In this document: piece after piece, positions 36,351 through 57,010 of the stretch
Numbering within the stretch: position 1 is the first letter of the stretch
Layout: every line of letters begins with the position of its first letter
Virus record (IMG/VR): IMGVR_UViG_3300031555_003397
Reading direction: 5' to 3' (one strand)
Source of the DNA: a virus
Taxonomy: Duplodnaviria > Heunggongvirae > Uroviricota > Caudoviricetes
DNA: 64,000 nucleotides
Program-made: the position numbers and the translations under genes
Notes under the pieces: generated by a model
What the model was told of the DNA's origin: nothing
Databases searched by the model: none
What the model saw: only the letters and a program-made list of their open reading frames with translations

Positions 36351-36365
36351 GTGGTCTCAGTTTGG

Positions 36366-36770: not shown

Positions 36771-36772
36771 AT

Positions 36773-37286: not shown

Positions 37287-37299
37287 ATCACTCCTATAA

Positions 37300-37330
37300 A
37301 TAAAAAGCGGTAGCGGAATTCTATTGGCCG
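37300..37330 (-). terminator. GC hairpin plus T-run (minus strand) before the RBS of 37062-37286
   Basis: GCGGCCAATAGAATTCCGCTACCGC TTTTTATTT. Confidence 0.35.
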
Positions 37331-37607
37331 CAATTTGTTTGCTTAGTCCGCGGAGAGGTACCGGTGTCATTAACCTCAATTTGTTGTTTACCATCCGGCT
37401 CGCTTTCGCTCAACTTATTTATAAGTCATAGGAGTTGTCAACCTATTAGTAAGTTTACTTCGCTTCCTTATACCGCGTTTTCCGCTAAGCCACATACACC
37501 GCGCGAGGTAACCAACGATAACTCCTCTGGCGGGAAGTGGTAGTTTAACTTACAAATCCGTGTTAACGCGCTTAGGGCCACATCCTAAGAATTTGAAACG
37601 TGGTTGG

Positions 37608-37677
37608 GTGCACGGCTGGGGTCGAACCCAGATTACTAGGTAATGAGTCTAGCGTCCTACCTTTAGACGACCCTGCA
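37608..37677 (-). tRNA. tRNA-Met/Ile2(CAT) copy 1
   Basis: Anticodon stem CTAGA/CCTAG, loop CTCATTA (T at position 37), T-arm CTGGG-TTCGACC-CCCAG. Confidence 0.5.
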
Positions 37678-37683
37678 ATATGG

Positions 37684-37754
37684 TTGCGAGCGAACGATTC
37701 GAACGTTGTCTTCTGGTAATGAGCCAGATGAGCTACCTTTGCTCCACCCTCGCA
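37684..37754 (-). tRNA. tRNA-Met/Ile2(CAT) copy 2
   Basis: D-stem GAGC/GCTC, anticodon stem TCTGG/CCAGA, loop CTCATTA. Confidence 0.55.
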
Positions 37755-37890
37755 ATATTCAACTGAATCCTCTCCTAACAGCGTACAATGCCTTACGCAC
37801 TTGGGTGTTGCCCTCTTTCGAGGTCGCAGGGTTTCTGGTTTGAGAGGACTTACTACAAACCCTTTTTCAGCTTCGCCTTCAAGGAAAACT

Positions 37891-38020
37891 AGATGCATTT
37901 GGTGTTATTTACGCGCGTCTACCAATTCCGCCACACTCTTCATTTGGGAAGAGTGATGGGATTCGAACCCACAATGTACGTGCTCCTCAAGCATTAACTA
38001 AATAATTGCTGTATGCACCT
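37891..38020 (-). ncRNA. Circularly permuted tRNA-like RNA 2 (YrlA / Y-RNA-like architecture)
   Basis: T-arm GTGGG-TTCGAAT-CCCAT, then CACTCTT-C-CCA-AATG-AAGAGTG as a closed acceptor with CCA, then D-arm TG-GCGG-AATTGGTAGA-CGCG. About 10-bp stem between the ends (AGGTGCAT/ATGCATCT). Confidence 0.5.
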
Positions 38021-38063
38021 AAATGGAATACAAAAACAGTTTTGTCTGTTTCTTAGGAAAGGA

Positions 38064-38198
38064 GCTAGATGCGTTTTGTGTTTTAAAACTCTACCACTTG
38101 AGCTACTCAGCGGAGGTGTCTCCGTCAAGATGGGACTCGAACCCATAACCCTCTGATTTTAAGTCAGTTAACAGTATAGTTGCTGCACGCATCTAAAA
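38064..38198 (-). ncRNA. Circularly permuted tRNA-like RNA 1 (YrlA / Y-RNA-like architecture)
   Basis: Order on the minus strand: 8-bp terminal stem, T-arm ATGGG-TTCGAGT-CCCAT, 10-bp closed acceptor-like hairpin with ACAC loop, D-arm TAGCTCAAGTGGTAGAG, stem return. Own consensus promoter at 38225-38262. Confidence 0.5.
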
Positions 38199-38224
38199 TA
38201 ATTGACAGTTTTTCTTCATTCATT

Positions 38225-38262
38225 TTGTAAATATATTATACATTAAATTTACATAAATTTCA
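38225..38262 (-). promoter_or_regulatory. Conserved promoter copy driving permuted tRNA-like RNA 1
   Basis: Minus strand TTGAAA-17-TATAAT. Confidence 0.5.
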
Positions 38263-38279
38263 AATTTTGGTACCCGAAA

Positions 38280-38897
38280 TTAATAACTCCATCTATATCC
38301 ATAAGCGGTTTTCCGTTTACCTAAACAAACTTCTTGAATATGACTACTTTTTCGTTTACCTAAAAAAGAATAGGCATCAATGATTTTAGGGAAAACTTTA
38401 ATAATTTCTCCCGTATTTTTATCAAGCATTTTTACAATTTTATTTTGCCATTGACCACAATTAGCTTGACGTTGTTGCTTAGTTATTCCACTGTTAGAAA
38501 GAATTAAAGCTATACTTTTATCAGAATATCCAGTAATCTTTTCAATTTCTGAACAATTATATCCTTCAGAATAAAGTTGATTTACTAAATCATAATCCAG
38601 AAAAGGTCTACCATCTCCTCCAATTGTTGCATTATAACCAAATTTAAACGAACCAAAAAATTCAATCCAATATCTTTCTCGCTCATTTAAATTTTCAGTA
38701 GAACATTCCTCAATTTTCTCAATAGAAAAATGTTCAATACCATATTTTATCATTGCATCATATAAAGGGCGTTTTTCATTTCTACTTTTGTTGTAGTCTG
38801 ATAAATGTTCTTTCCATCTACTTTCAATGGTCTTAATGGTCTTTCCAATGTAAATCTTTCCATTTACATCATTAGTAATTTTATAAATGTATGGCAT
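38280..38897 (-). CDS. GIY-YIG homing endonuclease (SegB-like)
   Basis: YIYKITNDVNGKIYIGKT..RWKEH. Confidence 0.65.
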   Translation of the reverse strand: MPYIYKITNDVNGKIYIGKTIKTIESRWKEHLSDYNKSRNEKRPLYDAMIKYGIEHFSIEKIEECSTENLNERERYWIEFFGSFKFGYNATIGGDGRPFLDYDLVNQLYSEGYNCSEIEKITGYSDKSIALILSNSGITKQQRQANCGQWQNKIVKMLDKNTGEIIKVFPKIIDAYSFLGKRKSSHIQEVCLGKRKTAYGYRWSY

Positions 38898-38920
38898 AAT
38901 TAAATACCTCCATATTATTG

Positions 38921-39000
38921 GTAGGGGATATCGGACTTGAACCGATACGAATAACAGTGGTTTTTGAGACCACCCCGTCTACCTATTCCAGCAATCCCCC
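38921..39000 (-). tRNA. tRNA-Leu(CAA) (type II)
   Basis: Anticodon stem GTGGT/ACCAC, loop CTCAAAA, long variable arm. Confidence 0.6.
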
Positions 39001-39345
39001 ATAAGCGTGGGATATTTCTATGTCCGGACTACCCTCCCACCGGGCACCTCTTTCATCCCCGAGGCGGGCTCGTTCTCGTCGAACTAATTTGGACACTAAA
39101 CACCAGCGGTTATGACTCCTATGTACCGCTTTTACTGCTGTGCACGCAGTTGAGGACTAACTTTTCCGGCTACATTTCCTCCCATAGTGTAAGCATCTCG
39201 TCGGATTCGCACCTCTCGGCCAATCCGCAAGTTGAGGAGCAGTAGTTTCCTCTGTAATTTTGTTATCCCAGGGAGAAACATACTAATTACCTGGACCGGA
39301 TTGATTACCGGAACATCGATGTTAAGCCGTGCTAACCACGGTGGT

Positions 39346-39425
39346 GGGCAGGGTGGGTGTCGAGCCCACTACCTTAAAAAGAACGGATTTACAGTCCGCC
39401 GCGTTTGCCGATTCGCTACCTACCC
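39346..39425 (-). tRNA. tRNA-Tyr(GTA) (type II)
   Basis: Acceptor GGGTAGG/CCTGCCC, loop CTGTAAA, long variable arm. Confidence 0.55.
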
Positions 39426-39663
39426 AAATCAATGCGGTTAGGTGGAAGCAACCGCAAACTCCTCTTCGTCTGTCTTTAATTACGCTGTTTTGCCTCAGCA
39501 TCCTTGAAGAACCGGATATCGCCCCTATTCTGTGGCGCGACCGTCGTCATCGTAGATTTTTCCTATTATGGTTTTTAAACCGGTGTTCTAGTCTACGCTC
39601 TCATTCACATTTGGTAGTTTATGCTTTAATGGGCGCCCTCAATACCAAGGAGGACCTCTATGG

Positions 39664-39736
39664 TGGAACCGATGGGACTTGAACCCACAACCTTTTCCTT
39701 GCAAGGGAATTGCGCTCCCAATTGCGCCACGGCCCC
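39664..39736 (-). tRNA. tRNA-Ala(TGC)
   Basis: G3-U70 wobble pair present. Loop CTTGCAA. Confidence 0.65.
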
Positions 39737-40094
39737 ATATATAGTAACCGATTCCGAAGATCCACATCGACTAGCCTTACTCAAAGGTAAAGAGGTTACT
39801 AAATATTGGTAAGAAAAATATAGGTTGAGAATATACCTAGAATTGCTACGGCTTAACACTTTTATGTTTTGAGTGCTTTTCCACTACCTTTTGGGTAGTA
39901 CCGCTCATGCCCGCAATTTGTAGTCACACCACAATGACCACAGGCTTGCTTACGCCTTTAAAGGAACGCTTACTCGATTATCACTCCACTATCAACCTTG
40001 CGGGCTGTTCACGACTGCGACCTCGTTCTAGTTTCGCTTCAATCAAATACAAGATGCTTGTGACACCTTGCATCCCTTATTGCTTACCACTAAG

Positions 40095-40330
40095 GGATTA
40101 GGACACTTTTCATCGTTCCCAATAAGAGATTTTTACTTATAACATCTGTTTTCAACACAGATTGCTCTTCCTATTGAGCTACGGACGCATATAAGAGGCA
40201 AATGTAGCTTTGCCCCGAAGTTTAAGTTTGGGGCGTCCGGTAGGACTCGAACCTACACTAAGTTATGTGACAGCAGACAGACTCTTATCGTAGTTTTCAC
40301 ACCTTTTGAGTGCAAAAATGCTACCCGCCT
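40095..40330 (-). ncRNA. Circularly permuted tRNA-like RNA 3
   Basis: T-arm GTAGG-TTCGAGT-CCTAC, then CGGACGC-C-CCA, a 43-nt loop and GCGTCCG. Then D-arm TAGCTCAATAGGAAGAGC and an anticodon-like hairpin ATCTGT-GTTGAAA-ACAGAT. Confidence 0.4.
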
Positions 40331-40702
40331 GCGTGTGCTTTCCTTTGCTTTCGTACTCACACGGATTCATCCACCATAGCAGATGAACTGGAAGTCGCCC
40401 TTGTTAGCTAAACTCGAACTAACCTTCCTACGGTTTACTGTACCTCAAACCATCCTTTTGCATTGATGCCAGTCGCTTGCGGCAACGAACTTTCTCTGCC
40501 AGTTGGCCCTCGAAAGCTCACTTCACATCATCAAGTTTGAGTTAGGACACGGGGGACGTATCCGAAAAGGTCTTTTCAACCTCAGCCAGTCCCGGCACGT
40601 TTTGCTTGGTTTACCGCTCGTCACGGCGGGGCTTTGTCAGTTTCCCCTTTCCTCTCCCTTACGGGAGTCTATCAGCCAAGCCTGGATAGACAAGCTATCT
40701 GG

Positions 40703-40777
40703 TGATACCACCGGGAATCGAACCCGGACTCTTCAGCTTGAAAGGCTGATGTGTTTACCAGTTTACACCATGGTACC
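40703..40777 (-). tRNA. tRNA-Glu(TTC)
   Basis: Anticodon stem TCAGC/GCTGA, loop CTTTCAA. Confidence 0.65.
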
Positions 40778-41288
40778 ATATAGCAGGATTCTACCTTACC
40801 TGCGCGGTAGCTGTGATTTCAACCGACACAGCCGGCCGCAAGGATTCTCACTAAGGATATTCCTTGTCCCTCCTAAGGTGAGCCAAGATCTTTCGATCAG
40901 CCCAAATCAAAATTCTTTTCTAATCTTTCTACGGCTCCCAAATAAACTTATAGCCGGAATTCTAGCGCTTTTTGGTACTGTTGTATTCGTAATTGGCATT
41001 GACCCATGTCGACGGTTTACCAATCCGAGCCAGGTTCTTCTGGCAGAAAAGAAAAGTTTTTGATGGGATTGCAGATGATATTCGCGACTATCACTTTAAC
41101 GGAACTGCTTATTATTTTTTCGCTTCCGGAGTATTTTATCGTTTGTTACTCAACAAGCACAACACCAACTTTGACCATGCTTCCGTTGCCGAAGCCGACT
41201 GATTTTGCCGTGGATTTTCCTACTGTCGCACGCTCAGTTACGTTTGGTATAGTTTTTAGGGAATTTACTACTACCTTAAACCCAATGG

Positions 41289-41363
<75 letters not shown>

Positions 41364-41640
41364 TTTACATGGGCCTTACGTCAGCCAACGACTTCCTCTT
41401 CAAGTTCCAATCAGAATTACTGATGCTCAGTCCGTCTTTAAATCTCCCGCGGGCTTTGGATAAGGAAACTTTCATTCCATAAGGCTTGATGAAATTGACC
41501 AAATAGGGCAACGCCTCACAATTCCCCTAAGAAACCAAAGACATCCAAATAAGAACCTAACCTGCCATTCCGCCAACTTCTATGTATGAGGTTCAAGAGT
41601 GGTCTATGACTCAGCGTTTCTTATTCTTTTCTAACCTTAT
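41364..41640 (-). ncRNA. Roughly 270-nt noncoding leader between a consensus promoter and tRNA-Asp
   Basis: Promoter at 41640-41690. No ORF. Confidence 0.3.
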
Positions 41641-41690
41641 GTATATATTATAACTCAAAACTTCAAAATTTTCAAACTTTTTCATTTTGA
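41640..41690 (-). promoter_or_regulatory. Conserved promoter copy (leader + tRNA-Asp)
   Basis: Minus strand TTGAAA-17-TATAAT. Confidence 0.5.
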
Positions 41691-41858
41691 AATTTCGGAA
41701 CTGGTTGGCTGACTTGTGCCTCTATTGGTCTCGACCAGTTAGCTGAAACCAGGGAGTTTACCTATAACGTCGCTCCTCCCCTTTAACCACGGAGATTTCT
41801 CGTTCATCTCAAACGCTTCCAATTGCCAGTCAAGCAGGGCGAAGAACCATTCCCATGG

Positions 41859-41943
41859 CGGACCGACCGAGAATCGAACTCAGACTACCCTCTCGAGTAG
41901 GAAGGATTAGCAATCCTTTGGGATACCATTACCCCACCGGTCC
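41859..41943 (-). tRNA. tRNA-Ser(GCT) (type II)
   Basis: Anticodon stem AAGGA/TCCTT, loop TTGCTAA, long variable arm, G73. Confidence 0.65.
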
Positions 41944-41949
41944 AAATGA

Positions 41950-42170
41950 TGTGGGTTTTTCCTTGAAGAGTCTACCAAGCCCACCGTGGCCCATATTCAT
42001 TTATATACCGCTCCTCATGTGCAACTCACATGGCGCCGTCGCGCTGGACTCATGGCCATCCGAGCGGATTCTGGCGGATGGTGAGGGACTCGAACCCCCA
42101 TGTCGGTTCGTTAGCCGACACACAAGTTTTCAAGACTAGGCCGTTATAACCATTTCGGTAACCATCCATC
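41950..42170 (-). ncRNA. Circularly permuted tRNA-like RNA 4 (divergent)
   Basis: T-arm GGGGG-TTCGAGT-CCCTC, then ACCATCCG-CCAGAATCCGCT-CGGATGG as a closed acceptor hairpin with CCA in the loop. Confidence 0.35.
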
Positions 42171-42200
42171 TGGTGGAGCCTTGCGGCCCCACATGAAAAA

Positions 42201-42554
42201 TCAGATTGCTTCGTCTCTACCGCAAATCCAGGCCAGAGTGGCTTCCAGCTCAAACTGGGCACCATTCAGATTTGCTTCAGCATCAGCCTGATACTTCATC
42301 ATCTCAGACAAATGAGCGATTGCTGCATCAACAATAGCCTTAGCTTCATCGACCTTGGAATAGGCTCGCTTTACTCGCTTCTCAGCAATCTTTACACCGC
42401 ATCGAGCAGCAGCCAGAGCGGCGCCCTTCTCGGGGTCAAACTCATCTGCAGGATTGCACTTAGCGACACCGCGTACAGTCTGACCTGCGAAGCTAGAAAC
42501 AGCAATAACCTTGTTGGGGGTTTCATAAATGCGATAGCTAGGATTCTTAATCAT
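42201..42554 (-). CDS. Hypothetical protein
   Basis: Consensus promoter at 42590-42640. Confidence 0.45.
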   Translation of the reverse strand: MIKNPSYRIYETPNKVIAVSSFAGQTVRGVAKCNPADEFDPEKGAALAAARCGVKIAEKRVKRAYSKVDEAKAIVDAAIAHLSEMMKYQADAEANLNGAQFELEATLAWICGRDEAI

Positions 42555-42732
42555 AATTTTCTCCTTTGTTTTGAATGTTTTCCTTAATTGGATATATATA
42601 TTATAAATCGAAATTTATAATTTTTCAAATTTCTAGACGCTTTTTGTTTCTTGCACTACCACTTGTGCTATATTTCAAATTTGATGGCTGAAATAAAAAG
42701 ACTCGAACTTTTAACATAGAAATCTTGAAAAG

Positions 42733-42806
42733 TTGCTGTAAGCGTCTATGGTCCTCCTGGGTAGGATTGAACTACCAACCTCGCGATTATAAGTCGCGGG
42801 CTCTAA
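42733..42806 (-). tRNA. tRNA-Ile(TAT)
   Basis: Anticodon stem CGCGA/TCGCG, loop CTTATAA. Confidence 0.6.
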
Positions 42807-42901
42807 CCTATTGAGCTACAAGAGGATAAAAGGGAGGTTCCGTACTCCCACCTATGCTAATGATAGGACGTCAAGAGCTATATTAAACCTCTTGACACTG
42901 G

Positions 42902-42975
42902 AGGCACTGGCAGGATTTGAACCTGCGTATCGCGATTTTGCAGACCGCTGCCTTACCGGACTTGACGACAGTGCC
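42902..42975 (-). tRNA. tRNA-Cys(GCA)
   Basis: Acceptor GGCACTG/CAGTGCC, loop CTGCAAA. Confidence 0.65.
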
Positions 42976-43160
42976 ATAATCAAGTCTAGACCCATAAGAA
43001 CTGTAACAATAATGGAAGGCTCCAGTGAACGTTGTTTGTTCTCCTTATCGAACACCTTCAACACCAAATAGGCATACAAGTAAAAGTTGTATCAATTTTC
43101 CTCTATCAGAAAAATTTGCTGTAAACGGGTCTATGTTAAGAAAGGAGGGCTTTCGCCCTG

Positions 43161-43233
43161 GTTGCCAGACTTGGACTCGAACCAAGAAAGCCGACTTCAG
43201 AGGACGGTGTTTTAACCAATTAGACTATCCGGC
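43161..43233 (-). tRNA. tRNA-Gln(CTG) candidate
   Basis: Loop CTCTGAA. The anticodon stem has one mismatch. T-arm CTTGG-TTCGAGT-CCAAG. Confidence 0.45.
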
Positions 43234-43303
43234 AATATAAAGAAGGCCGTTTCATATAACAGTAGCGGCTAAACCTACTGCGACAAACGGCCTTGGGCCG
43301 TGG

Positions 43304-43375
43304 CTGGGGATTAGAGATTTGAACTCCAACTTTAGGCTTCAAAGGCCCGATTGCTACCATTACAACAATCCCCAA
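43304..43375 (-). tRNA. tRNA-Gln(TTG)
   Basis: U1-A72, G73, loop CTTTGAA. Confidence 0.55.
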
Positions 43376-43383
43376 TATTGAGG

Positions 43384-43626
43384 TCACAGAACCTCAGGAT
43401 GTTCATGAAAGAACTTGAAGAAATAACCTTCTTCTGCAGGAATAGAACAAAATAGCTCTAAATCATCGCCATTTTCCGCTAACATTGCATCAAGTGCCAT
43501 ATGCTGAGAAAACAAAGACTTTAGATTATACTTATCACCATAAATGGATTCAAGCCATACGTCTCCCTGGCACTTATTGATTGCTTCACGAAAAGCATCA
43601 ATCTCAGTAGTTTTAGTCAGTTTCAT
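43384..43626 (-). CDS. Hypothetical protein
   Basis: ORF. Confidence 0.4.
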   Translation of the reverse strand: MKLTKTTEIDAFREAINKCQGDVWLESIYGDKYNLKSLFSQHMALDAMLAENGDDLELFCSIPAEEGYFFKFFHEHPEVL

Positions 43627-43663
43627 AGAAAACTCCTTTTAAGACATTCTAGGCGCCTTTTCG

Positions 43664-43734
43664 TTCTAAAAAACGGATTCGAACCGTCAATGACAAATTA
43701 CAAGTTTGTTGTTTAACCTTTAAACTATTTCAGA
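43664..43734 (-). tRNA. tRNA-Thr(TGT)
   Basis: D-stem GTTT/AAAC, anticodon stem ACAAA/TTTGT, loop CTTGTAA. CCA not encoded. Confidence 0.55.
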
Positions 43735-43765
43735 AAGAAGTAGAATTGCTGCAAGCGCCTTATGG

Positions 43766-43840
43766 TGCCCCGCCCGAGGATCGAACTCGGAACCCCCACC
43801 TTAAAAGGGTGGTGCTGACTACCAATTGAGCTAGCGGAGC
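43766..43840 (-). tRNA. tRNA-Lys(TTT)
   Basis: Anticodon stem CCACC/GGTGG, loop CTTTTAA. Confidence 0.65.
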
Positions 43841-44160
43841 AAATATTAAGTGGTCTAGATTAGTATAGACCAAACTTATAGTTTTACTAAGCAGGGATTA
43901 CACCCTCTAGAGGTTTTGATTCCGTTCTTCCCCACCTCATCTAAAGACTTATGGAGGCACCTAATCCTCTAACGTAACCAGTAGGTATAAAGGCAACTGG
44001 GGACCTTTAACTAGGATATATGTACACTTACCTAGAGCTTCTTTCCACGCCAGGGCCTTAGTTACGTATAAGGTACGTACGTCTTGATTTCCACATATCG
44101 TCACAAGATTTGGTTATACCCTCAGAATTAACAAAGGAGTCTCAGGTCGTGCTCCTGTGG

Positions 44161-44233
44161 TAGAAGGACCGGGACTTGAACCCAGGTCTGACGATTATCA
44201 GTCGCCTGTACTAACCAGCTGTACTATCCCTCC
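44161..44233 (-). tRNA. tRNA-Ile(GAT)
   Basis: Loop CTGATAA, T-loop TTCAAGT. Confidence 0.6.
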
Positions 44234-45247
44234 ATAAAAGAGTTTAACCTTTATCCACTCTAAAGGTACTCGCATTAAGACTCATCGAGCTTACCTGTTC
44301 TATTTATATACCGCTCCCAGCGTAAACGGTTGTTGCTCCATCCTTTAACTATTCAGACTTCATAGCAACTATTTAACTCAATAAAATCGTACGGACCTTC
44401 GCCCTACCAACTGTTTAACCTTCGCTCATATTCGACCAGTGAGGAGACACGGTCTGAGCCATAGGTAGCGACCCTATGACTTCCGGCCCCAGAAGCCTTC
44501 CAGCTTCCCTGGCACCTCCACGTAGTGACCCACTCAATGTGGGATAAGCGCTTGATGCTTCTAAATCTCACGTAGGAATGATTACCTACAACTTTCACCC
44601 GCCATTCAGAAATATCTTTTGCAATTTGATTCTATTACAAAACTATAATCATCCAAGCATTATTGTTATTTGCGATTGGGCTACTCGTACCACAACCTTG
44701 TCTTATATCCGGATTACTCCGTCATCAACGCAAACTTCCTTATTGGTGTACCTTGGTCTGGAACAGTCACCAACTAATCCCTAACAAGGCTTATTCCCCC
44801 ACAGGGGCGTCTATTGCGGAAGCGACAAGACAGTGTCTTTGAACGCGATTATGTCAGCACACCCCTCCATCCAAGACCTCAGTTCTGAGGCGGAACTCAT
44901 ATCTCACGATACAAGCCCTCTACCTAGTGTTGGCTATCGTCAACACGCTTGCATTTCGGACTCCTGGCGCCCACGGGCAGGATTGGGTTCTCGGCACGAT
45001 GGTATTCGCTCTGCACCGAGTTGTACAAATTTTATCAAGTTGCATGATGATTCAGTCGAAAGCGTCCTCGCCATTCCTATTCGGATGCGGGCATCATCAT
45101 GAGGACTTATAAAACAAAGGCTTAGGTTTCGCTAGGAGAACTATTCCGCACGGAACTCGCTCCTTCCCTATCCGGGAACCACCCTTGAAGCAGCATCTCT
45201 AGGCTTCTTCCTTTGTTATGTTTTAATTACAAGACGCGAAATTTGTG

Positions 45248-45321
45248 TCCTAAAACCGGACTCGAACCGGTGATTGCTCTCTTGGAAGGAAAGTGTTTAA
45301 ACCATCTAAACTATTCAGGAA
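45248..45321 (-). tRNA. tRNA-Gly(TCC) copy 1
   Basis: Loop CTTCCAA, D-stem GTTT/AAAC. Confidence 0.55.
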
Positions 45322-45378
45322 GTTATAATTGCTGTATGCGTCTTTATACCGGATTTCTCCCGGCGAGAAAAAGGCTGG

Positions 45379-45451
45379 AGTGGCTGACGGGATTTGAACC
45401 CGCGACCTTCTGAATGGCAATCAGATGCTCTACCAACTGAGCCACAGCCAC
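45379..45451 (-). tRNA. tRNA-Gly(GCC)
   Basis: Acceptor GTGGCTG/CAGCCAC, loop TTGCCAT. Confidence 0.7.
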
Positions 45452-45588
45452 ATATTGACCCGATGGTCAGTCGGGTCATTGACCTACTTGATTTGCATAT
45501 GCCTAAGCGGGATTCACAAGTTTACCCCTTGGAGGCGATATTCAGAATCGAACTGAAGACGAAAGGTTACAAAGCTCTCGTTTTACCA

Positions 45589-46002
45589 TTAAACTATATC
45601 GCCATTAAAACAAAACAAAATCTTTATACCACTTTTGATTTGATTTTGGAGTTTCGCCATAATAAATTATCATGCTACCCTTCGCCGCCTTATCAATTGG
45701 AACAAAAATAATATGTTCAAATTCTGGATTAACGACAGCAAAATAATCAATTAAACCAATATAATTATGGTTAGTTATTTCATTGTAATTTTTAGAAGTG
45801 CTTCTAGTATTAAATACCCAAGTATCTTGAGAAGTACCCCTATAAGCAGTTTTTACCTAAATTCTAAGCAAATTACCATTGTAATCAACAACAAAATCAT
45901 ATGGTAAATTATTACCTATTGGTTTACAAACTGGTATATCTTTTACCAGACAATGAATAATAAATTTCTATTCAGAAATATCCCCAATTTGAGTTTTATT
46001 CA
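45589..46002 (-). CDS. PD-(D/E)XK-family putative homing endonuclease (paralog 3); 2 in-frame TAG
   Basis: RBS ggagg, then ATG 46002. LLRI*VKT aligns with LLRIQVKT and LYRVQVKS in its paralogs. Stop TAA. Confidence 0.5.
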
Positions 46003-46100
46003 TTATAATAGCCTCCTATGCTATTTATTATAAATGCTCGCTTGGATAGGAGCCATTACTCAATAAGGAGCTACCTCATTGCTACCGAGCAAATATCTGG

Positions 46101-46171
46101 ACCAGTATAAGGGGTTCGAACCCTCACCGACAGAGTGGAAATCTGTAATGCTACCATTACACCAATACTGG
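46101..46171 (-). tRNA. tRNA-Gly(TCC) copy 2
   Basis: Anticodon stem ACAGA/TCTGT, loop TTTCCAC. Confidence 0.5.
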
Positions 46172-46194
46172 ATATTCGGTTGATTTCTCAACCG

Positions 46195-46240
46195 ATTGTA
46201 TAAATATTATATCACGAATTTTCAGAAAAGTCAAAATTCT
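46195..46240 (-). promoter_or_regulatory. Conserved promoter copy (tRNA-Gly copy 2)
   Basis: Same motif. Confidence 0.45.
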
Positions 46241-46541
46241 GAAAATCTTCCTCACTAAACTCAAGTCGCTGAATCTTTTTCAAGTCAGAAATCTTGTAGT
46301 TAATAGAAGGACTGAATCCATGAGCATTCTGTCTGCGCTTACCCTTATTGCGTGTTTTTGCACTACAGAAAGGGCAGGAACAGTGAATTTTATTCTTGGA
46401 GAACTGATGAAGGTTGGGATAATAGTCCCACCCAGGAGATTCGGGATAGACCTCACGAGCGATACGTCTTTTACGAATTGCATGGCGCCAAGCCATTTCA
46501 CGATAATAAGCACTGGTTCTCTTCATCAAATCACTCTCCAA
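46212..46541 (-). CDS. Small basic protein
   Basis: ORF. Confidence 0.4.
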   Translation of the reverse strand: MESDLMKRTSAYYREMAWRHAIRKRRIAREVYPESPGWDYYPNLHQFSKNKIHCSCPFCSAKTRNKGKRRQNAHGFSPSINYKISDLKKIQRLEFSEEDFQNFDFSENS

Positions 46542-46600
46542 TTAAAATGGTACCTCCGGGTGGAATCGAACCACCGACCTGCTGGTTCGTATCAAATTCA
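46541..46600 (-). other. tRNA-like 3-prime fragment (T-arm GGTGG-TTCGATT-CCACC plus CGGAGGT-A-CCA) without a matching 5-prime half
   Basis: Lies between the stop of 46602-47009 and the start of 46212-46541. Confidence 0.3.
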
Positions 46601-46601
46601 C

Positions 46602-47009
46602 TTATTTGCTAAGAACCTCCTTAGCAATATAATCTTTGGCAAAACAAATGTTTTTAATTTGCCCATTTTTTGTTGGGACTAATCTCAAAGATTTTTCTCT
46701 GGACCCACATTCTGCTATAGGAATTAAATAACATTCATCATTAAACCAAGTACAAAAATAATCAATTTCTGACTGATAAGAACGACGATTTGCGCCATCT
46801 CTTGTAATGTGCGAAGAGCAAGTTTCAAAAGAAATTTTTTCTCCATCGCTCTTTGAAGTTTTTACTTGAATTCTTAATAATTTACCCTCATAATCAAGGA
46901 TAAAATCATACCGTGCAGGACTTTCTGGAGTAGAAACCATGTATCCCAACTCTAAAAAATAAGTCTTGCATTTTAACTCTGTTATTGTTCCTCTTAAATT
47001 ACTATCCAT
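46602..47009 (-). CDS. PD-(D/E)XK-family putative homing endonuclease (paralog 2)
   Basis: YDFILDYEGKLLRIQVKTS. Confidence 0.45.
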   Translation of the reverse strand: MDSNLRGTITELKCKTYFLELGYMVSTPESPARYDFILDYEGKLLRIQVKTSKSDGEKISFETCSSHITRDGANRRSYQSEIDYFCTWFNDECYLIPIAECGSREKSLRLVPTKNGQIKNICFAKDYIAKEVLSK

Positions 47010-47043
47010 TAAAATATCTTAACAAATATGTCTCATTCGATAC

Positions 47044-47117
47044 GAACCAAATAGGTCTAATGGTGCCTAAGGTAAGATTTGAACTTACGACCCCTACCTT
47101 ATGAGGGTAGTGCTCTA
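47044..47117 (-). tRNA. tRNA-Met/Ile2(CAT) copy 3
   Basis: Anticodon stem CTACC/GGTAG, loop CTCATAA. Confidence 0.6.
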
Positions 47118-47196
47118 ACCATCTGAGCTACGTAGGCATTTAGAGAGGGTCTTGTGGAATACGCCCCACTCGCTGCGGTGACCCTCAGTACCGTGG

Positions 47197-47269
47197 TCCA
47201 AGTGACAGGTCTCGAACCTGCGGCCTCGTGATCCCAAATCACGCGCTCTACCAGCTGAGCTACACCTGG
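47197..47269 (-). tRNA. tRNA-Pro(TGG)
   Basis: Anticodon stem CGTGA/TCACG, loop TTTGGGA. Confidence 0.65.
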
Positions 47270-47272
47270 ATA

Positions 47273-47425
47273 TCACTCAACTTCCTTGCGCGCCTTATCT
47301 TTCTCGCGTCCGCGATTGTAGACAGCGCCCTTACCTTTTTTGGCTTCAACCTTAGAGCCACGACGTCTAAACTGAAGATACTGCTGAAGCTCTTCGCCGG
47401 TTTTCTTCATATATTCCTTGCCCAT
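47273..47425 (-). CDS. Small basic protein (50 aa)
   Basis: ATG 47425 to TGA 47273. Not in the ORF track. Weak call. Confidence 0.25.
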   Translation of the reverse strand: MGKEYMKKTGEELQQYLQFRRRGSKVEAKKGKGAVYNRGREKDKARKEVE

Positions 47426-47797
47426 TAGAGTTACTCCTTTCAAGGTTTTTATTAACTAGACGGATAAAAAGATACGTTTATAAACCCCAATTATATGTTG
47501 TCTTTAAAGATATAGTTGCTGTGTCCGTCTAAATAAGCCTTACGCTTCATTGTATAAATATTATACTTTAAAATTGAGCAAAAATCAAATTTTTTAACTC
47601 AATGATGTATCAATCTCTACATCTACGCATAAGCGTGACCGCATCATTTGAGTGAAGGAACGACAGAATCCATTAACTGTTGACCACTTTGAAATGATTG
47701 ATACATCATTCAATTAAAAATGGGGTCTTGGTGTGGGTGGGTAGCACCACACATTTCCCAGCCAGCAGGCGTTTTCTTCTTAAACTACAAGACCTGG

Positions 47798-47883
47798 CAC
47801 GGGTGGTTGGGATTCGAACCCACGTGGTGCTTACGCACACGAGTTTTGGAGACTCGCGCCATCGACCGCTAGGCGACACCCGC
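47798..47883 (-). tRNA. Unusual tRNA with Trp anticodon CCA but type-II body (long variable arm, G73)
   Basis: Anticodon stem CGAGT/ACTCG is perfect, loop CTCCAAA. Variable-arm hairpin GTGCGTAAGCAC. Length 86 nt. Confidence 0.5.
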
Positions 47884-47886
47884 ATA

Positions 47887-48630
47887 TTAAATTTTATTCC
47901 ATTCTTCATCAGAATAAAGTTTGATTTCTTTGATTTTTGAGGGCAATTTTTCTGCTATGCACCATTTACGAATTGCATTATCAGATACCCCAAACTTTTT
48001 ACCAATTGTGGTAAAAGGAGTGCTTCTGATAAGATTTTTTAATTCCTCTCGTGAAGGTCTTCTGCTTCGATTTGTTTTATTTACACATTCTACAGAACAA
48101 TATTTATCTTGAGAAGGCTTTAATTTTTTACCACAGCAAAAACAAAACCGTTCTTTTTTACGAAGCGGATAAGTATAATCTTCTTGTATACGTGTTTTTC
48201 CAGTATTTATTTCACTAATTGTATCAATACCAACATTATACCTTTCAGCAATTTTACCTAAAGATATATCAGTATTTATAAGCAAATCATAAATTTCAAC
48301 CAATGATTCTGTAGAAATTTTTACGCAACAATTTGAAGTACCCGCCCCACCAATTGTTTGATTATATCCATTATTGTAACTATCATATAACGCAATATAA
48401 TACTTTTCTAAACTATTTAGTTCGGTATGAGAACATTCCACAAGAACTTCAAAGTCAAAATTATCTATTCCATATTCTCTAATTGCAATATATAATGGAG
48501 CATTATAACTTTGCTCTTTAGCCATTTGACGATGAGCGCGCCATCTGCGAGAAATATCAATAGACTGCCCTATATAACATTGCCCTGTAATTTTATTTGT
48601 AATTTTATAAATTCCAACCATTCTTATCAC
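47887..48630 (-). CDS. GIY-YIG homing endonuclease with C-terminal zinc finger / NUMOD-like region
   Basis: GIYKITNKITGQCYIGQS. Confidence 0.6.
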   Translation of the reverse strand: MIRMVGIYKITNKITGQCYIGQSIDISRRWRAHRQMAKEQSYNAPLYIAIREYGIDNFDFEVLVECSHTELNSLEKYYIALYDSYNNGYNQTIGGAGTSNCCVKISTESLVEIYDLLINTDISLGKIAERYNVGIDTISEINTGKTRIQEDYTYPLRKKERFCFCCGKKLKPSQDKYCSVECVNKTNRSRRPSREELKNLIRSTPFTTIGKKFGVSDNAIRKWCIAEKLPSKIKEIKLYSDEEWNKI

Positions 48631-48706
48631 CTTCTAATTATAAGTAGGGTTTCAATTTATAAAATACATAAAATTGAACCAAGAGTAAAATTTTTGGAAT
48701 ACTATG

Positions 48707-48792
48707 GAGGAAGAAGTGGGATTCGAACCCACGGAACCTTTCAGTTCGCCACCTTTCCAAGATGGTGCCATCGGCCACTCGGCCATTCTTCC
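48707..48792 (-). tRNA. tRNA-Ser(GGA) (type II)
   Basis: Acceptor GGAAGAA/TTCTTCC, loop TTGGAAA, long variable arm. Confidence 0.6.
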
Positions 48793-48797
48793 ATTGG

Positions 48798-48871
48798 GGT
48801 GAAGGACGAGAATCGAACTCGCAACTACTGGAACCACAATCCAGGGTTCTACCTATTGAACTACCGACACC
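48798..48871 (-). tRNA. tRNA-His(GTG)
   Basis: G-1 and C73 present. Loop TTGTGGT. Two mismatches in the acceptor stem. Confidence 0.5.
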
Positions 48872-48919
48872 AGGTGCCCCGCCATTTTTAAGGTCTAACG
48901 GGCTGACCTAAGAAGTAAA

Positions 48920-49231
48920 TCACTTCATTTTGTAATAGTGATACCAAGTACGGTACTCTTCTTTGGGGTCTGGAGGAGCATCATGATGCCAACGTCTATA
49001 ATGGTCACAGTAAAACCAATCATATTGACGTTGCCAATACTCTTCCCAATCACAAAGCCAACCATAATCGCAAATTTCCCAACTTTCAAACAGATGTTTG
49101 AATTGAGAAGGTTTAAGAGTTATTTTGGGATTTCTCTTGAGATACTGACGCACTCTATGGTTAGCCAATCTCTTGAGTTCCTTATCTTTCTTATCTCCGC
49201 AATATGCGTGCTTCTTGTAACTTCTGCTCAT
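48920..49231 (-). CDS. Small basic Trp/Tyr-rich protein
   Basis: ORF. GC-rich terminator hairpin 49261-49365 downstream. Confidence 0.4.
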   Translation of the reverse strand: MSRSYKKHAYCGDKKDKELKRLANHRVRQYLKRNPKITLKPSQFKHLFESWEICDYGWLCDWEEYWQRQYDWFYCDHYRRWHHDAPPDPKEEYRTWYHYYKMK

Positions 49232-49368
49232 TTGTTCTAAACCTCCTATGAGAGAATTTAGAACAGAACCATCCTAAATGCCATTGGAATCACTCTCCCT
49301 TGATTTGGTGTTTACCCCAGGGCCGCTGGCGCTCCTGCCAGCCATGGGAGCTGACCCTGGGATGCTGG

Positions 49369-49442
49369 TGCACAATACAGGATTCGAACCTGTGACCCCT
49401 TGCTTGTAAGGCAAATGCTCTAACCAGCTGAGCTAATCGTGC
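49369..49442 (-). tRNA. tRNA-Val(TAC)
   Basis: Loop CTTACAA, D-stem GCTC/GAGC. Confidence 0.65.
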
Positions 49443-49449
49443 ATAAAAA

Positions 49450-50170
49450 CATAGATTCCATTTTGCGTTCGTTTTTCAATACCCTCAACGCCTAGACGCT
49501 CTATGATAGATTTTCACTATCCATTGTCATGTGCTTAGTTCTATCGAGTTGGTCTGCGTTGCCACTCCTTGCCAACCACGCCAAGGCCGTTTTACTGCCA
49601 AAAACTTCATCTATGTGTTTACCCTTCACCAGACCGCATTTCAACCGAGCAAGGCAGTAAGACCATTGTGCGGCAGTGGCTCCAGAAACTTTAAAAACTC
49701 TTATCGGTGTCCTATTATATAAATTCCACTCTTACTAGCGCCAGCTCTTTCACTACTGGGCGCGGGTCGCCTTATTACTTTCGGCGCCGTCTTGACCAGC
49801 AAGCTCTTCTCGTCTTGCAGGACTGCTTTCTCTGATTTTCGGGTGGAGGATATTCGAAGCTACCCTCAAGCTCACTCATTTCACCCTAGGCACTTTCAAG
49901 GTATGCCTTACGTCGCGGCTTGGGCATCTTGCCGCAGTTCAATTTTCTTTCAGCGGAATTATCAAACCATTCCGCCTAATTGGTCTGTGGATATGAACCA
50001 ATAACCCTAAATAGACTCCACAAACGCACTCAAACCAATCGAATACGTTGCTTCACGGTCGCCTCGGTCTATCTTGTAGCCGACGCACCCAAGTATTTCT
50101 CACTTGGTAAGAGCCGTGCTTTATCATCCACGGCGATGGTTGGTTTAAATTACGAACCTTTTAAAGCCAA
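49450..50170 (-). ncRNA. Large structured noncoding RNA (~700 nt) with RNase-P-RNA-like sequence blocks
   Basis: No ORF. The minus strand has CCTTGAAAGTGCC, AGGGTGAAATGAGTG and CTCCACCCG in the same order as the J11/12-P12 region of bacterial RNase P RNA. The P4 helix was not identified. Confidence 0.25.
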
Positions 50171-50180
50171 CTGGTCCTGG

Positions 50181-50254
50181 TGGGACAGGCCGGAATTGAA
50201 CCAGCGACACTTAGATTTTCAGTCTAATGCTACTACCTGCTGAGCTACTGCCCC
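50181..50254 (-). tRNA. tRNA-Phe(GAA)
   Basis: Anticodon stem TTAGA/TCTAA, loop CTGAAAA. Confidence 0.65.
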
Positions 50255-50699
50255 GAATATAATCTTCATAAGTTACTTGCTCATGTAAATTTAGATAGTG
50301 AAATTCTCTATGACAATTAGCACATAGAACATCGCATTTTTCAAGTTCAGCTTGAATTGTCTTTAAAGAAGCAGATTTTAACATATGATTAATAGTGTCT
50401 ACTTTTTGGCTATTATCTCGATGGTGAAAGTCTAAAACATAACTTCTTTTTTCACCACATTTTAAACAACCACACTTCTTAGCTTCTTCAACTACCGCTA
50501 TATTGGAACTTTTTTGAGTGGCCGCGGTTGCTTTGACACTTTCACGTCGCATCAAACTTTCTTGATAATGCTATCTCTCTTGTGCTCTTTGACATTCTTT
50601 ACATTGAGCGTGTTTTCTGCCCTCAGCTTTATTCTTCCAACGAAAATTATCCAAAGGCAATTCTCTTTGACATTTGGTACACTTTTTTAATTCAGACAT
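50211..50699 (-). CDS. HNH homing endonuclease with N-terminal CxxC zinc finger; 1 in-frame TAG
   Basis: RBS gaggagg, then ATG 50699. CANCHREFH motif. The 3-prime end overlaps tRNA-Phe by about 45 nt. Confidence 0.5.
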
Positions 50700-50858
50700 T
50701 AAAAATTCCTCCTCTTTGTTTCTAAATATAAGTAGAATTACAAAGAAAATAGTACAATTTTCCAGTCCAAATTTCAGTCTAAAAATTTAACTAGACGCAA
50801 TATAAGTTTGACAATTTAGCAGATTGTTCCTTGAAAAGTTTGCTGTGTGCGTCTGTGG

Positions 50859-50930
50859 CGGGGGCGGTGAGAATCGAACTCACATCTGCGGTTTTAGAGA
50901 CCGCGGTCCTGGCCTTTGAACGACACCCCA
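50859..50930 (-). tRNA. Amber suppressor tRNA, anticodon CUA, Gln-like identity (tRNA-Sup/Gln(CTA))
   Basis: Perfect anticodon stem GCGGT/ACCGC, loop CTCTAAA (plus-strand TTTAGAG at 50893-50899). U1/C72 unpaired, G2-C71, G3-C70, G10, G73, CCA encoded. Confidence 0.65.
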
Positions 50931-50994
50931 ATATGGGGTGCTACCTATATAACCCTTGGTTCTCGGGTGAACTCGTGTAGCGGTTACTTTATGG

Positions 50995-51066
50995 AGGCCC
51001 CGGAGAATTACGATATCTCGACCTACAGATTAACAGTCTGTTGCTCTGCCTCTGAGCTACGAAGCC
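50995..51066 (-). tRNA. tRNA-Asn(GTT)
   Basis: Anticodon stem ACAGA/TCTGT, loop CTGTTAA. Atypical T-loop. Confidence 0.55.
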
Positions 51067-51153
51067 ATATCAAACAATTCTAGACACATAATACTTATCA
51101 GATTTACAGTCTAATTTTTCCAGTATGTTACATTTGCTGTGAGTGTCTTATGG

Positions 51154-51226
51154 TAGCCCCGATGGGATTCGAACCCATACTGGAAGGATTTTAAGTCCTC
51201 TGTCTCTGCCGTTGGACTACGAGGCC
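51154..51226 (-). tRNA. Type-I tRNA with Leu anticodon UAA (short variable arm); paralog of 36488-36560
   Basis: Loop CTTAAAA. Shares the AACGG D-loop, CCAGT variable arm and T-arm with the UAG tRNA. Discriminator A. Confidence 0.55.
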
Positions 51227-55270: not shown

Positions 55271-55314
55271 CTCCGGTCTTTCTTTCTACTTATAAGTAGA
55301 AAGAAAGACCGGAG
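55271..55314. repeat. Perfect 44-bp palindrome between the Ro60 gene and a GIY-YIG gene
   Basis: ctccggtctttctttctacttataagtagaaagaaagaccggag. Contains ACTTATAAGTAG. Confidence 0.8.
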
Positions 55315-55337: not shown

Positions 55338-56906
55338 TTAAATACGAATTTTCTCGTACGCCTTTCCATTCAAAATGGAAACCATATAATCATATGCAGT
55401 CATACCATTTAAGGCCCTCACAAGATTCTTAAATGTAGAGGCAGACTGACCAGATACCAAAATAACATCTTCTCTATTAGAGAGAAAGGTGTCATTCCGC
55501 GCATTAATATTCCAAAGAATTAACTTGGGACATTCGTATCCAGCCGCACGGAACTTAGTTTCTAGAGTATCCATAAAATCAAATCGAGCGTTGGGTCTAA
55601 AATAAGAGTCAATCTCCATATCGCTCAGTACCAACAAAGCCTTAGGCATTTCATTCTTAGGAACTCGATTTGCAATGGCAACACGCAAAATTTCCTGCAT
55701 ACCCTTCATTAGATTAGTGCTATATCCAACTCCTGCGCTTGCAGTTTTTTGCACTGCCTCAAGAAGAGAGCAGCCTTCGCGCAGATTAATAAAATGAGGA
55801 TTATCAGTAAAAGTCATGTATTGATTGCGATAAGCTCCGACATTATGCTGTGCAAGATAGATGGCCAAGGCAATAGAAGAGGCCATAGGCCGCCCTCTCA
55901 TAGAGCCACTCACATCAGCCATAGCGACAATATTCAGTCCTTCATTAATATAGTTAGGCAGAGCCTTCCACTGAGCTTCAACAACCTCGTCCAGCTTATC
56001 GTTGATGATGCAGTCACCATAGCAACGACCGCTGTAACCTCTACCCATATACTTCTCGACCAGGTCGTAAGGATACAGAGTAGCGGCGTTAATCTTGACC
56101 TCACCCTTAGATACGCTCTTCAGGTAAGCGTCAAAACGCTCATGGTCATGCTTAGCAAATGCAGAACCGTAGTTGTGCATTGCGTAAGAAGGAACCTTAG
56201 CGTAATCAATCAGACCCCACTCGCCAGCGGACATCTGACGCTCAACAACATTGATGTGCTTACGCAGCGCGGACAGCATCTTACGATACTTACGAGGCTC
56301 TAGGTGCAGGGCACGCATAGCCTTAGTAGCCATCTGACGAGTCTTCACAGAGGAAGTGTTCTCAGAAGGCATCCACTTTGCCAGCAGGGAAACAGGAACA
56401 ACCTTGGTAGCAGTAGAGGCGTTGTAAGCCTTCATATCAGCAGCCAGAGTCTTAGCGACATTTTCCCACATCAGCTTTTCGCACTTGGTGCCGCACAGAA
56501 CGAACCAAGAGTCGAAACGGTTGAAGTAAGGAATCAGCTCAATGTTCTTGTTTACGATTCCGGGATAGTTTTCTGCCAGCCAGCGCAGGCAGACGCGGAA
56601 GGTACGACGCTCACCCAGGCCACCCTGGCGAATATCGCCGGAGTAGAACAGCATCTTGGTTGCCAGCAGCTTATCCTCTCGGAAAGCAGCAGCAAACTTC
56701 TGCTCGATTTCACGATCAGTACGAGGACGCAGTGCGCCAATCTGAGAGAACAGATCCAGCAGAGCACCCTGTGCAGTGGAATCATAGGCAGCAGCGCCAT
56801 TTTCAGTCAGCTTATGGGTACCTTCACGATACATAGCAGTTGCAAAATTCATTTTACATTTCTCCTTTTCACTCACAAAGTTTTTGTTTTGAAAAGCTAG
56901 GCGCAA
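55338..56906 (-). CDS. rsr: Ro60-like (TROVE domain + vWA/MIDAS) RNA-binding protein
   Basis: N-terminal T.NGA.A..ST....L..LF pattern of TROVE. MIDAS motif ADVSGSM, then vWA. Length 522 aa. Confidence 0.6.
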   Translation of the reverse strand: MRLAFQNKNFVSEKEKCKMNFATAMYREGTHKLTENGAAAYDSTAQGALLDLFSQIGALRPRTDREIEQKFAAAFREDKLLATKMLFYSGDIRQGGLGERRTFRVCLRWLAENYPGIVNKNIELIPYFNRFDSWFVLCGTKCEKLMWENVAKTLAADMKAYNASTATKVVPVSLLAKWMPSENTSSVKTRQMATKAMRALHLEPRKYRKMLSALRKHINVVERQMSAGEWGLIDYAKVPSYAMHNYGSAFAKHDHERFDAYLKSVSKGEVKINAATLYPYDLVEKYMGRGYSGRCYGDCIINDKLDEVVEAQWKALPNYINEGLNIVAMADVSGSMRGRPMASSIALAIYLAQHNVGAYRNQYMTFTDNPHFINLREGCSLLEAVQKTASAGVGYSTNLMKGMQEILRVAIANRVPKNEMPKALLVLSDMEIDSYFRPNARFDFMDTLETKFRAAGYECPKLILWNINARNDTFLSNREDVILVSGQSASTFKNLVRALNGMTAYDYMVSILNGKAYEKIRI

Positions 56907-56964
56907 TTGAGTTAATCAACCTCAGTTATTGTCGATTATTTTAGTTTCGCTGTTCGCGCCTCAA

Positions 56965-57010
56965 CTTTGTAATTATATTATATCTGAATTTTGCAGATTT
57001 TTCAAATTTT
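56965..57010 (-). promoter_or_regulatory. Conserved promoter copy upstream of the Ro60 gene
   Basis: Plus strand gtaattatattatatctgaattttgcagatttttcaaatttt. Confidence 0.45.

Follow-up and report, generated by a model that had tools for sequence, protein, structure and literature searches.

Ribonucleoprotein particles of Ro60 and Y RNA have long been studied, and their role in bacteria and phages is poorly understood. This study concerns a gene on the minus strand (55338..56906) of a 64,000-nucleotide stretch of phage DNA, here called the window, from IMG/VR record IMGVR_UViG_3300031555_003397 (Caudoviricetes); a preliminary description, made from the DNA letters, had named it a phage-encoded Ro60 ortholog. 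Among the described systems, genuine Rsr/Ro60 proteins, collected with Deinococcus radiodurans Rsr, all carry the Pfam domains PF05731 (TROVE) and PF25045 (vWA_Ro60). The bacterial YrlA RNAs are tRNA mimics encoded on the same strand as Ro60 and at most 4 kb from it (PMC4201824). In Thermus phage phiLo, two Y-like RNAs are encoded upstream of the Ro60 gene; the Ro60 protein binds them and attenuates the polynucleotide phosphorylase (PNPase) of the host (PMC12135203). The RNA targets of Ro60 are the stems of Y RNAs and the 3' ends of misfolded RNAs. Bas63 gp130 has been reported to counter the ppl defence system and, according to the preprint, this protein alone restores plaquing on the ppl host when placed in T7 (10.1101/2024.10.10.617714). 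Compared with these, the window protein is a remote Ro60-fold homologue in a distinct, already catalogued family, neither an ortholog of Ro60 nor a protein with a vWA domain only. The best overall explanation of the locus, with a probability of roughly 55%, is that this Ro60-fold DUF2828/DUF7788 protein is partnered with a stem-loop RNA that bears the motif ACAGCAA.

The family assignment is clear at the level of domains. The window protein matches PF11443 (DUF2828) with 161.5 bits (cutoff 29) and PF25043 (DUF7788) with 114.6 bits (cutoff 27.1), while its vWA-type Pfam matches are weak and generic only (VWA_2, CoxE-type); PHROG 850, described as "RNA-binding protein", covers residues 19-518 (E=1.9e-117). 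Unlike Ro60/Rsr (phiLo 9KOP and 9L5Y, D. radiodurans 2NVO), it has no match to TROVE or vWA_Ro60 in Pfam, even at E<=1, and NCBIfam gave no match either. The preliminary description had seen an N-terminal TROVE-like pattern, had proposed a hidden Markov model search with PF05731, and held that a protein missing TROVE would be vWA-only. The search returned no TROVE match, and the pattern has no counterpart in Pfam or in profile-profile comparison, the resemblance being confined to the predicted fold; the vWA-only consequence nevertheless does not follow, as the N-terminal half is the DUF2828 helical repeat domain. Searches of PDB sequences with phmmer and with a 129-sequence profile gave a weak vWA match only and missed Ro60. 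Against a 49-sequence Ro60/Rsr alignment, hhalign aligns Ro60's vWA domain, together with the helix preceding it, to residues 252-469 (C-terminal half only; probability 68-79%, E about 2e-5), and the residues of the MIDAS (metal ion-dependent adhesion site) line up with those of Ro60. The N-terminal 262 residues gave no signal against the N-terminal half of Ro60/Rsr in local, relaxed or global modes. "Ortholog" is therefore too strong a term: a Ro60-type predicted fold stands behind it, but the Pfam domains differ and the sequence similarity is in the C-terminal half only.

The family to which the protein does belong is large. By tblastn it occurs in 704 phage records, all below 60% identity to the window protein (top 43.7%); 699 phage records align over the full length at 30-44% identity, and no record in the phage collection exceeds 44%. 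Hosts of these phages include Escherichia, Mycobacterium, Salmonella, Vibrio, Listeria, Staphylococcus, Campylobacter, Enterococcus and Bacillus. The members are not all named alike: mycobacteriophage members are called "Ro-like RNA binding protein" and these too are DUF2828 plus DUF7788, one member from Pectobacterium phage CBB is called "structural protein", and others "vWFA protein". Like the window protein, DUF2828/DUF7788 phage proteins have the two Pfam domains, the length, the MIDAS motif and a position at or inside tRNA arrays. Bas63 gp130 (MZ501086, bas63_0130) is one of them, with 34% identity to the window protein over the full length (BLASTP, E=8e-78), the same two Pfam domains and a gene directly upstream of the Bas63 tRNA array. 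The window protein thus adds a member to a known family that is already widely annotated, and is itself a known kind of protein. Its phage is uncultured, about 140 kb in size and, unlike the catalogued phages with DUF2828/DUF7788 genes, without a DNA match in INPHARED (megablast of 12 kb of the window).

The resemblance to Ro60 is greater in predicted structure than in sequence. An AlphaFold2 model built from 146 sequences (mean predicted local distance difference test score 81.4; predicted template modelling score 0.66) is helical over residues 29-268 and continues as an alpha/beta vWA domain. Structure alignment with solved Ro60 proteins gave the following (score, aligned residues, deviation):

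Thermus phage phiLo Ro60 (9l5y_B): 16.6, 384 residues, 4.1 A
D. radiodurans Rsr (2nvo_A): 12.6, 359 residues, 4.4 A
Xenopus Ro60 (1yvp_A): 11.2, 279 residues, 4.7 A

These alignments span both domains, with 12-15% identity, whereas vWA-only structures align over at most 193 residues. In a Foldseek search of PDB, Ro60 entries take the first four places, with full-length alignments at E=7e-6 to 6e-5. A Foldseek-type search of BFVD had as its best matches DUF2828/DUF7788 proteins of giant viruses and phages (template modelling (TM) score 0.65-0.78); further matches were a phage TROVE protein (E=4e-7) and a "Ro-like" protein of a Gordonia phage. Structure prediction had been suggested as a way to look for the TROVE ring; the model aligns with Ro60 over two domains, and the Foldseek TM-scores are weighed below. 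The model thus suggests a fold of Ro60 type, probably ring plus vWA, with an intact MIDAS site.

The gene itself differs slightly from the original description. The open reading frame at 55338..56906 is present on the minus strand as the maximal frame of 522 amino acids, opening at TTG 56906. The start is probably ATG 56852 instead, because homologues are 504-509 amino acids long (more than 120 close relatives, which cover 97% of the 522-residue frame) and because GGAG at 56865-56862 stands in front of this ATG, 9 nt upstream. The real gene is most likely 55338..56852 (minus strand), with 504 rather than 522 amino acids. Its sequence features are:

55338..56852, minus strand: coding sequence of the 504-residue predicted Ro60-fold protein, with a helical DUF2828 domain and then a vWA domain (DUF7788) whose MIDAS is complete
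56862..56865, minus strand: Shine-Dalgarno sequence GGAG, read from the sequence and invariant in nine related loci
56977..57005, minus strand: predicted sigma-70-like promoter TTGAAA-17-TATAAT, found by scan with 11 of 12 matches, both hexamers kept in relatives

The promoter confirms the earlier claim that the gene has a consensus promoter of its own; it is conserved in relatives, and the gene, transcribed from this predicted promoter, heads an island of tRNAs and non-coding RNAs. The MIDAS motif DVSGSM is likewise present as claimed, with D313, S315, S317, T379 and D411 (504-residue numbering; DxSxS...T...D) invariant across 129 diverse homologues.

A conserved RNA structure accompanies the gene. 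In an alignment of the 5' leaders of nine close relatives, a conserved element begins about 5 nt past the predicted transcription start. It is closed by the stem GAGGCGC...GCGCCT, the 5' arm is followed immediately by a conserved unpaired GAACAGC(A/G)AA, and the inner hairpin is hypervariable; in these nine loci the closing stem has one compensatory change (GGCAC/GTGCC). Distant homologues have the same architecture upstream with unlike stems (GGACTC/GAGTCC, TGACAC/GTGTCA, AAGTTGAT/ATCAACTT, AGATTCA/TGAATCT), and tandem copies are common, with two to five per locus. The hallmark of the family is a closing stem of 8-10 bp with ACAGCAA immediately following on the 5' side. In a scan of 1.45 Mb, a descriptor (CAGC[AG]A, with a stem of at least 7 bp ending no more than 4 nt upstream and a loop of 8-115 nt) matched 250 times on the gene strand, compared with 33 times on the antisense strand and about 53 times in shuffled sequence. 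Matches within 260 nt upstream of the start codon number 100 and occur in 63 of 78 loci. Among 40 non-redundant instances, nine of the ten stem pairs show double-sided changes, and the covariation score is 0.591, compared with 0.215 for column shuffles and 0.09-0.15 for slid partners.

A covariance model of the stem-loop (R1) found 90 matches at E<=0.01 in 52 loci, every one on the gene strand. Sixty-six of these, in 33 of the 52 loci, adjoin the gene (55 of them upstream, within 800 nt, and 11 downstream, within 300 nt). Against 570 kb of control DNA, metagenomic and unrelated, the same model had no match at E<=0.01. The control loci, each of which holds the AACAGCNAA word, came from a metagenome scan with the over-degenerate pattern GTTGAGGNNNNAACAGCNAA, which yielded chance matches only, and were reused as a negative control. 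The motif adjoins the homologues of Listeria phage P100, Campylobacter phage F357, Bacillus phage Izhevsk and a Staphylococcus phage, the last having three copies downstream of the DUF2828 gene. In Staphylococcus phage S-CoN_Ph2 (L215 7510-7599), the first of three tandem copies is overlapped by an annotated 29-residue "hypothetical protein", which is probably not a real gene. The inner hairpin resembles an anticodon stem-loop in 14 of the 40 short seed instances, compared with 0.7 expected, and the anticodon-like loops include CUUUUAA, CUGUUAA and CUGCUAA. Rfam 15, searched at loose E-values, has no family over the leader or the ACAGCAA copies.

Inverted repeats at the DNA level, such as cassette ends, were also considered for the stem-loops and judged unlikely, given the strand bias (90 versus 0 and 250 versus 33) and the frequent G-U pairs, which are A-C mismatches on the other strand; both argue for structure in RNA rather than DNA. 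The stem-loops are a conserved, covarying RNA family found beside the gene and within tRNA arrays. As far as shown, this family and the ribonucleoprotein that it implies are undescribed in Rfam 15 and in the literature found.

The window holds several members of this family. A second covariance model (R2), built without any sequence of the window's clade and so independent of it, had 11 matches in the window at E<=1, all on the minus strand, with three copies at E=1.6e-6 to 2.3e-5. The leader element and the elements of the tRNA island are:

56895..56965, minus strand: candidate 5'-leader stem-loop, stem AGGCGCGA (56961-56954) with TTGCGCCT (56906-56899), motif at 56953-56947, inner hairpin variable
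35318..51226, minus strand: tRNA island, which holds 36 tRNA genes as well as ROOL, GOLLD and drum RNAs; it shares the strand of the Ro-like gene and lies downstream of it
51078..51152, minus strand: ACAGCAA copy, inner hairpin with anticodon-loop-like CUGUAAA (R1 E=3.7e-7; R2 E=2.3e-5; fold)
50789..50858, minus strand: ACAGCAA copy with anticodon-loop-like CUGCUAA, directly after a suppressor tRNA (CUA) (R2 E=1.6e-6; sequence)
47454..47534, minus strand: ACAGCAA copy, closing stem UUAGACGGA/UCCGUCUAG (R2 E=5.3e-6; descriptor scan)
45231..45344, minus strand: ACAGCAA closing stem around tRNA-Gly(UCC) at 45247-45320 (descriptor scan and sequence; R1 E=0.009)
43651..43760, minus strand: GCAGCAA closing stem around tRNA-Thr(UGU) at 43663-43734 (descriptor and sequence; weak in the models, R2 E=0.49)
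42628..42755, minus strand: ACAGCAA stem around a permuted tRNA-like module, a T-arm-like then a D-arm-like hairpin (descriptor and sequence; R1 E=0.014)
38060..38202, minus strand: GCAGCAA stem around a YrlA-like permuted module (sequence; Rfam YrlA 24.1 bits, E=0.0076 in a 500-nt search, below the gathering score of 69)
37883..38028, minus strand: ACAGCAA stem around a second YrlA-like module (Rfam YrlA 24.2 bits, E=0.0072 in a 500-nt search, below the gathering score of 69)

The leader copy scores 28.9 bits in R1 (E=2e-4) and the element is kept in nine related loci; its assignment is that of a candidate, mainly by positional homology and conservation within the clade. The window's clade has this single, reduced leader stem-loop, and Bas63-type loci are without the RNA motif.

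The permuted elements invite comparison with YrlA (RF02553). As in YrlA, three window elements have a terminal stem enclosing a T arm, a closed acceptor-like hairpin and a D arm; the order at 38060..38202 is anticodon-like arm, T arm, closed acceptor-like hairpin, D arm. All three are on the strand of the Ro-like gene, and one (37883..38028) contains AAUGCUUGAGG, which resembles the YrlA consensus, and matches the YrlA model from end to end (1-114). Unlike YrlA, the elements are 13-19 kb from the gene (for the two sub-threshold YrlA matches, which share its strand, the distance is about 17-19 kb) and have an extra outer stem with ACAGCAA, while most members of the ACAGCAA family hold a simple or anticodon-loop-like hairpin and not a tRNA-like module. 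At the gathering threshold, Rfam finds no Y RNA and no YrlA in the window. The tRNA-like Y-RNA candidates of the preliminary description are accordingly supported in outline, as three stem-enclosed permuted elements in the tRNA island, but not as members of YrlA, for which the two that score reach 24 bits of the 69 required. The motif beside the gene, a closing stem with ACAGCAA, is distinct from the YrlA and Y RNA families of Ro60/Rsr.

The position of the gene among tRNAs is shared by most of its relatives. In a survey of 79 IMG/VR viral loci encoding relatives of the window protein, a tRNA lies within 10 kb of the gene in 74 and within 500 bp in 38, tRNAs flank the gene on both sides within 2 kb in 33, and 559 of 564 tRNAs are on the strand of the DUF2828 gene. 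Bacillus phage Izhevsk, Felixounavirus SME50 and Bas63, Listeria phage P100 and Campylobacter phage F357 have the same placement. The family is widespread in phages and usually embedded in same-strand tRNA arrays, and the huge tRNA set reported for the window is real, with all 36 genes on the minus strand.

From these features a mechanism can be proposed. The protein would bind the closing stem and ACAGCAA, in parallel to Ro60 on the conserved stem of Y RNA, and protein and stem-loop RNA would form ribonucleoprotein particles. Host factors that recognise tRNA could then be engaged by the variable cargo, which is a hairpin resembling an anticodon loop, a complete tRNA or a YrlA-like permuted mimic, with the outcome that the tRNA and RNA pool of the phage would be protected, or host nucleases and defence systems blunted. 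Through the leader copy, the protein could regulate the mRNA that encodes it. An anti-defence role of the window protein may be supposed from the analogy to Bas63 gp130 and Thermus phage Ro60, and the RNA quality-control or decoy module suggested in the preliminary description is plausible as a hypothesis. A broader proposal is possible but tentative: DUF2828/DUF7788 proteins and ACAGCAA RNAs may be an undescribed, widespread family of phage ribonucleoproteins paralleling Ro60-Y RNA, in which stem and motif are the handle for the protein, the exchangeable cargo is a decoy or shield against tRNA-targeting nucleases or a chaperone for pre-tRNA, and leader copies autoregulate. Three kinds of cargo may occur in such a family: mimics of the anticodon stem-loop (Lys, Asn, Tyr or Ser type), complete tRNAs, and tRNA mimics in permuted order.

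Several points weigh against the partnership of a Ro60-fold protein with the stem-loop RNA. The link between the DUF2828 protein and the stem-loops is one of genomic adjacency only, and the motif was not seen beside the Felixounavirus homologues (SME50, Bas63) or one mycobacteriophage homologue. The leader copy is weak in R2 (17.3 bits, E about 0.1) and has ACAGCGA, not ACAGCAA. Because pairing was a selection criterion for the seed instances, their percentage of paired cells is inflated and does not count as independent evidence, unlike the enrichment figures and the variety of pair types. On the side of the protein, the Foldseek TM-scores to Ro60 are just 0.35-0.38 and the N-terminal domain has no sequence-level similarity to TROVE. 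The activity of gp130 alone in T7 means that the RNA is not universally required, and it supports the main alternative, in which the protein acts by itself, inhibiting a host defence or nuclease (e.g., the ppl PHP-ATPase) through its vWA/MIDAS face. The stem-loops would then be unrelated elements of the tRNA island, such as leader-trailer helices or processing or stability signals, close to the gene merely because the gene is in the array. The homologue that restores plaquing unaided (10.1101/2024.10.10.617714) is a true one, and the Felixounavirus loci that do without the motif, the stems that just enclose ordinary tRNAs and the fully conserved MIDAS site all agree with it. It is nonetheless doubtful: 66 of the 90 model matches fall in the approximately 1.1 kb beside the gene, about 6% of the searched sequence, against 24 elsewhere with the remaining tRNAs; the tandem copies follow the gene, being upstream in most lineages and downstream in the Staphylococcus phage; and the Ro60 fold is the fold of an RNA-binding protein.

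An RNA role could also take the form known from bacteria, with the protein as a functional equivalent of Rsr/Ro60 that binds YrlA-like RNAs, recruits PNPase or other exoribonucleases and carries out RYPER-like quality control of structured RNA. The fold matches both Rsr and phage Ro60, YrlA-like modules lie on the gene strand, and Ro60 of phage phiLo makes such complexes (PMC12135203). This equivalence is improbable, however, given the missing TROVE signature, YrlA matches that are far below gathering and 13-19 kb away when known YrlA RNAs are at most 4 kb away (PMC4201824), and a best-conserved RNA beside the gene that is a different motif with no counterpart in Rfam. Least probable is a vWA adaptor, structural or assembly protein with no RNA role, for instance a MoxR-type co-chaperone partner or a component of the virion. 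Such a function would fit the "structural protein" (Pectobacterium phage CBB) and "vWFA protein" names of homologues and the weak VWA_2 and CoxE-type matches in Pfam, but the two-domain match to Ro60 outranks every vWA-only match, the gene lies among tRNAs and early/middle-type genes and not structural genes, and no AAA+ MoxR partner was found near it in the window.

The surroundings of the gene include elements that are separate from the Ro-like system. The Ro-like gene heads a minus-strand block that continues with a GIY-YIG fragment, a metallophosphoesterase and a LysM protein, and then the tRNA island; its divergent upstream neighbours are RNase H, a protein resembling deoxynucleoside monophosphate kinase, and an ATP-dependent ligase. 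The perfect palindrome reported to follow the gene was confirmed:

55271..55314, no strand assigned: perfect 44-bp palindrome, 3' of the Ro-like gene

It is limited to relatives that share the downstream GIY-YIG gene, others having an ordinary terminator there, and its 3' arm holds the GGAGG that precedes the ATG of the GIY-YIG open reading frame. The palindrome was considered as a Ro-binding RNA and rejected, because it co-occurs only with the GIY-YIG gene and contains the ribosome-binding site of that gene; being tied to this gene, it is not part of the Ro-like system. Its likely functions are to terminate transcription of the Ro-like gene and, as a hairpin, to sequester the GIY-YIG ribosome-binding site, as part of a homing-endonuclease insertion. 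Short open reading frames resembling pieces of GIY-YIG/NUMOD homing endonucleases flank the Ro-like gene at 54438-55262 and 57430-58236 (both minus strand), and appear to be decayed or split copies, because relatives (L003, L207, L212) have intact GIY-YIG genes of 230-278 amino acids at the corresponding positions.

Other RNAs were observed in the island and in related loci. Inside the tRNA array there is a full-length ROOL RNA (44373-45044, minus strand; 296 bits, gathering score 99), and a GOLLD match lies at 39822-40333 (minus strand) just above its gathering score (152.8 versus 150 bits), so the window phage has both. Listeria phage P100 (L214 4459-5010) has a ROOL-like RNA, below gathering at 86 bits, about 1 kb upstream of its DUF2828 gene. 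A drum RNA match lies between tRNA-Val and tRNA-Phe (49935-50061, minus strand; 46.4 bits, gathering score 43), and a sub-threshold match to the type-P1 twister ribozyme just upstream of the island (51522-51594, minus strand; 29.4 bits versus a gathering score of 67, E=0.006).

Some tRNAs of these phages are themselves unusual. The tRNA with a CUA anticodon (amber suppressor; called "Pyl" by ARAGORN) at 50856-50930 on the minus strand is conserved in relatives, being also present in L004, L005, L009, L011-L014, L033, L036, L043 and L064, and in other relatives suppressor-type tRNAs with UUA or UCA anticodons are right beside the DUF2828 gene (L009 9880-9954; L031 11513-11584); these tRNAs hint at reassignment or suppression of stop codons in these phages. 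Matches to the Rfam tRNA model that span 116-120 nt just upstream of DUF2828 genes (L018 9703-9822, L052 9693-9808, L019 9246-9364) have long insertions and are possibly intron-containing or composite tRNA-like RNAs. In Listeria phage P100 (L214, DQ004855; 125-5368), GenBank has the tRNAs on the strand opposite the DUF2828 gene, whereas Rfam puts all of them on the gene strand, and the deposited strand annotation of DQ004855 appears to be wrong.

In tRNA-rich phages, a second Ro60-fold family, distinct in sequence from the first, is very common, and one member has a reported anti-defence phenotype. The DUF2828/DUF7788 family is accompanied by a conserved structured RNA of its own that has no counterpart in Rfam. 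If the link between protein and RNA is false, the finding is one more member of a catalogued family; if it is true, it could explain why the gene is placed in tRNA arrays and could clarify how phage tRNAs are protected or deployed against defences that cleave tRNA.

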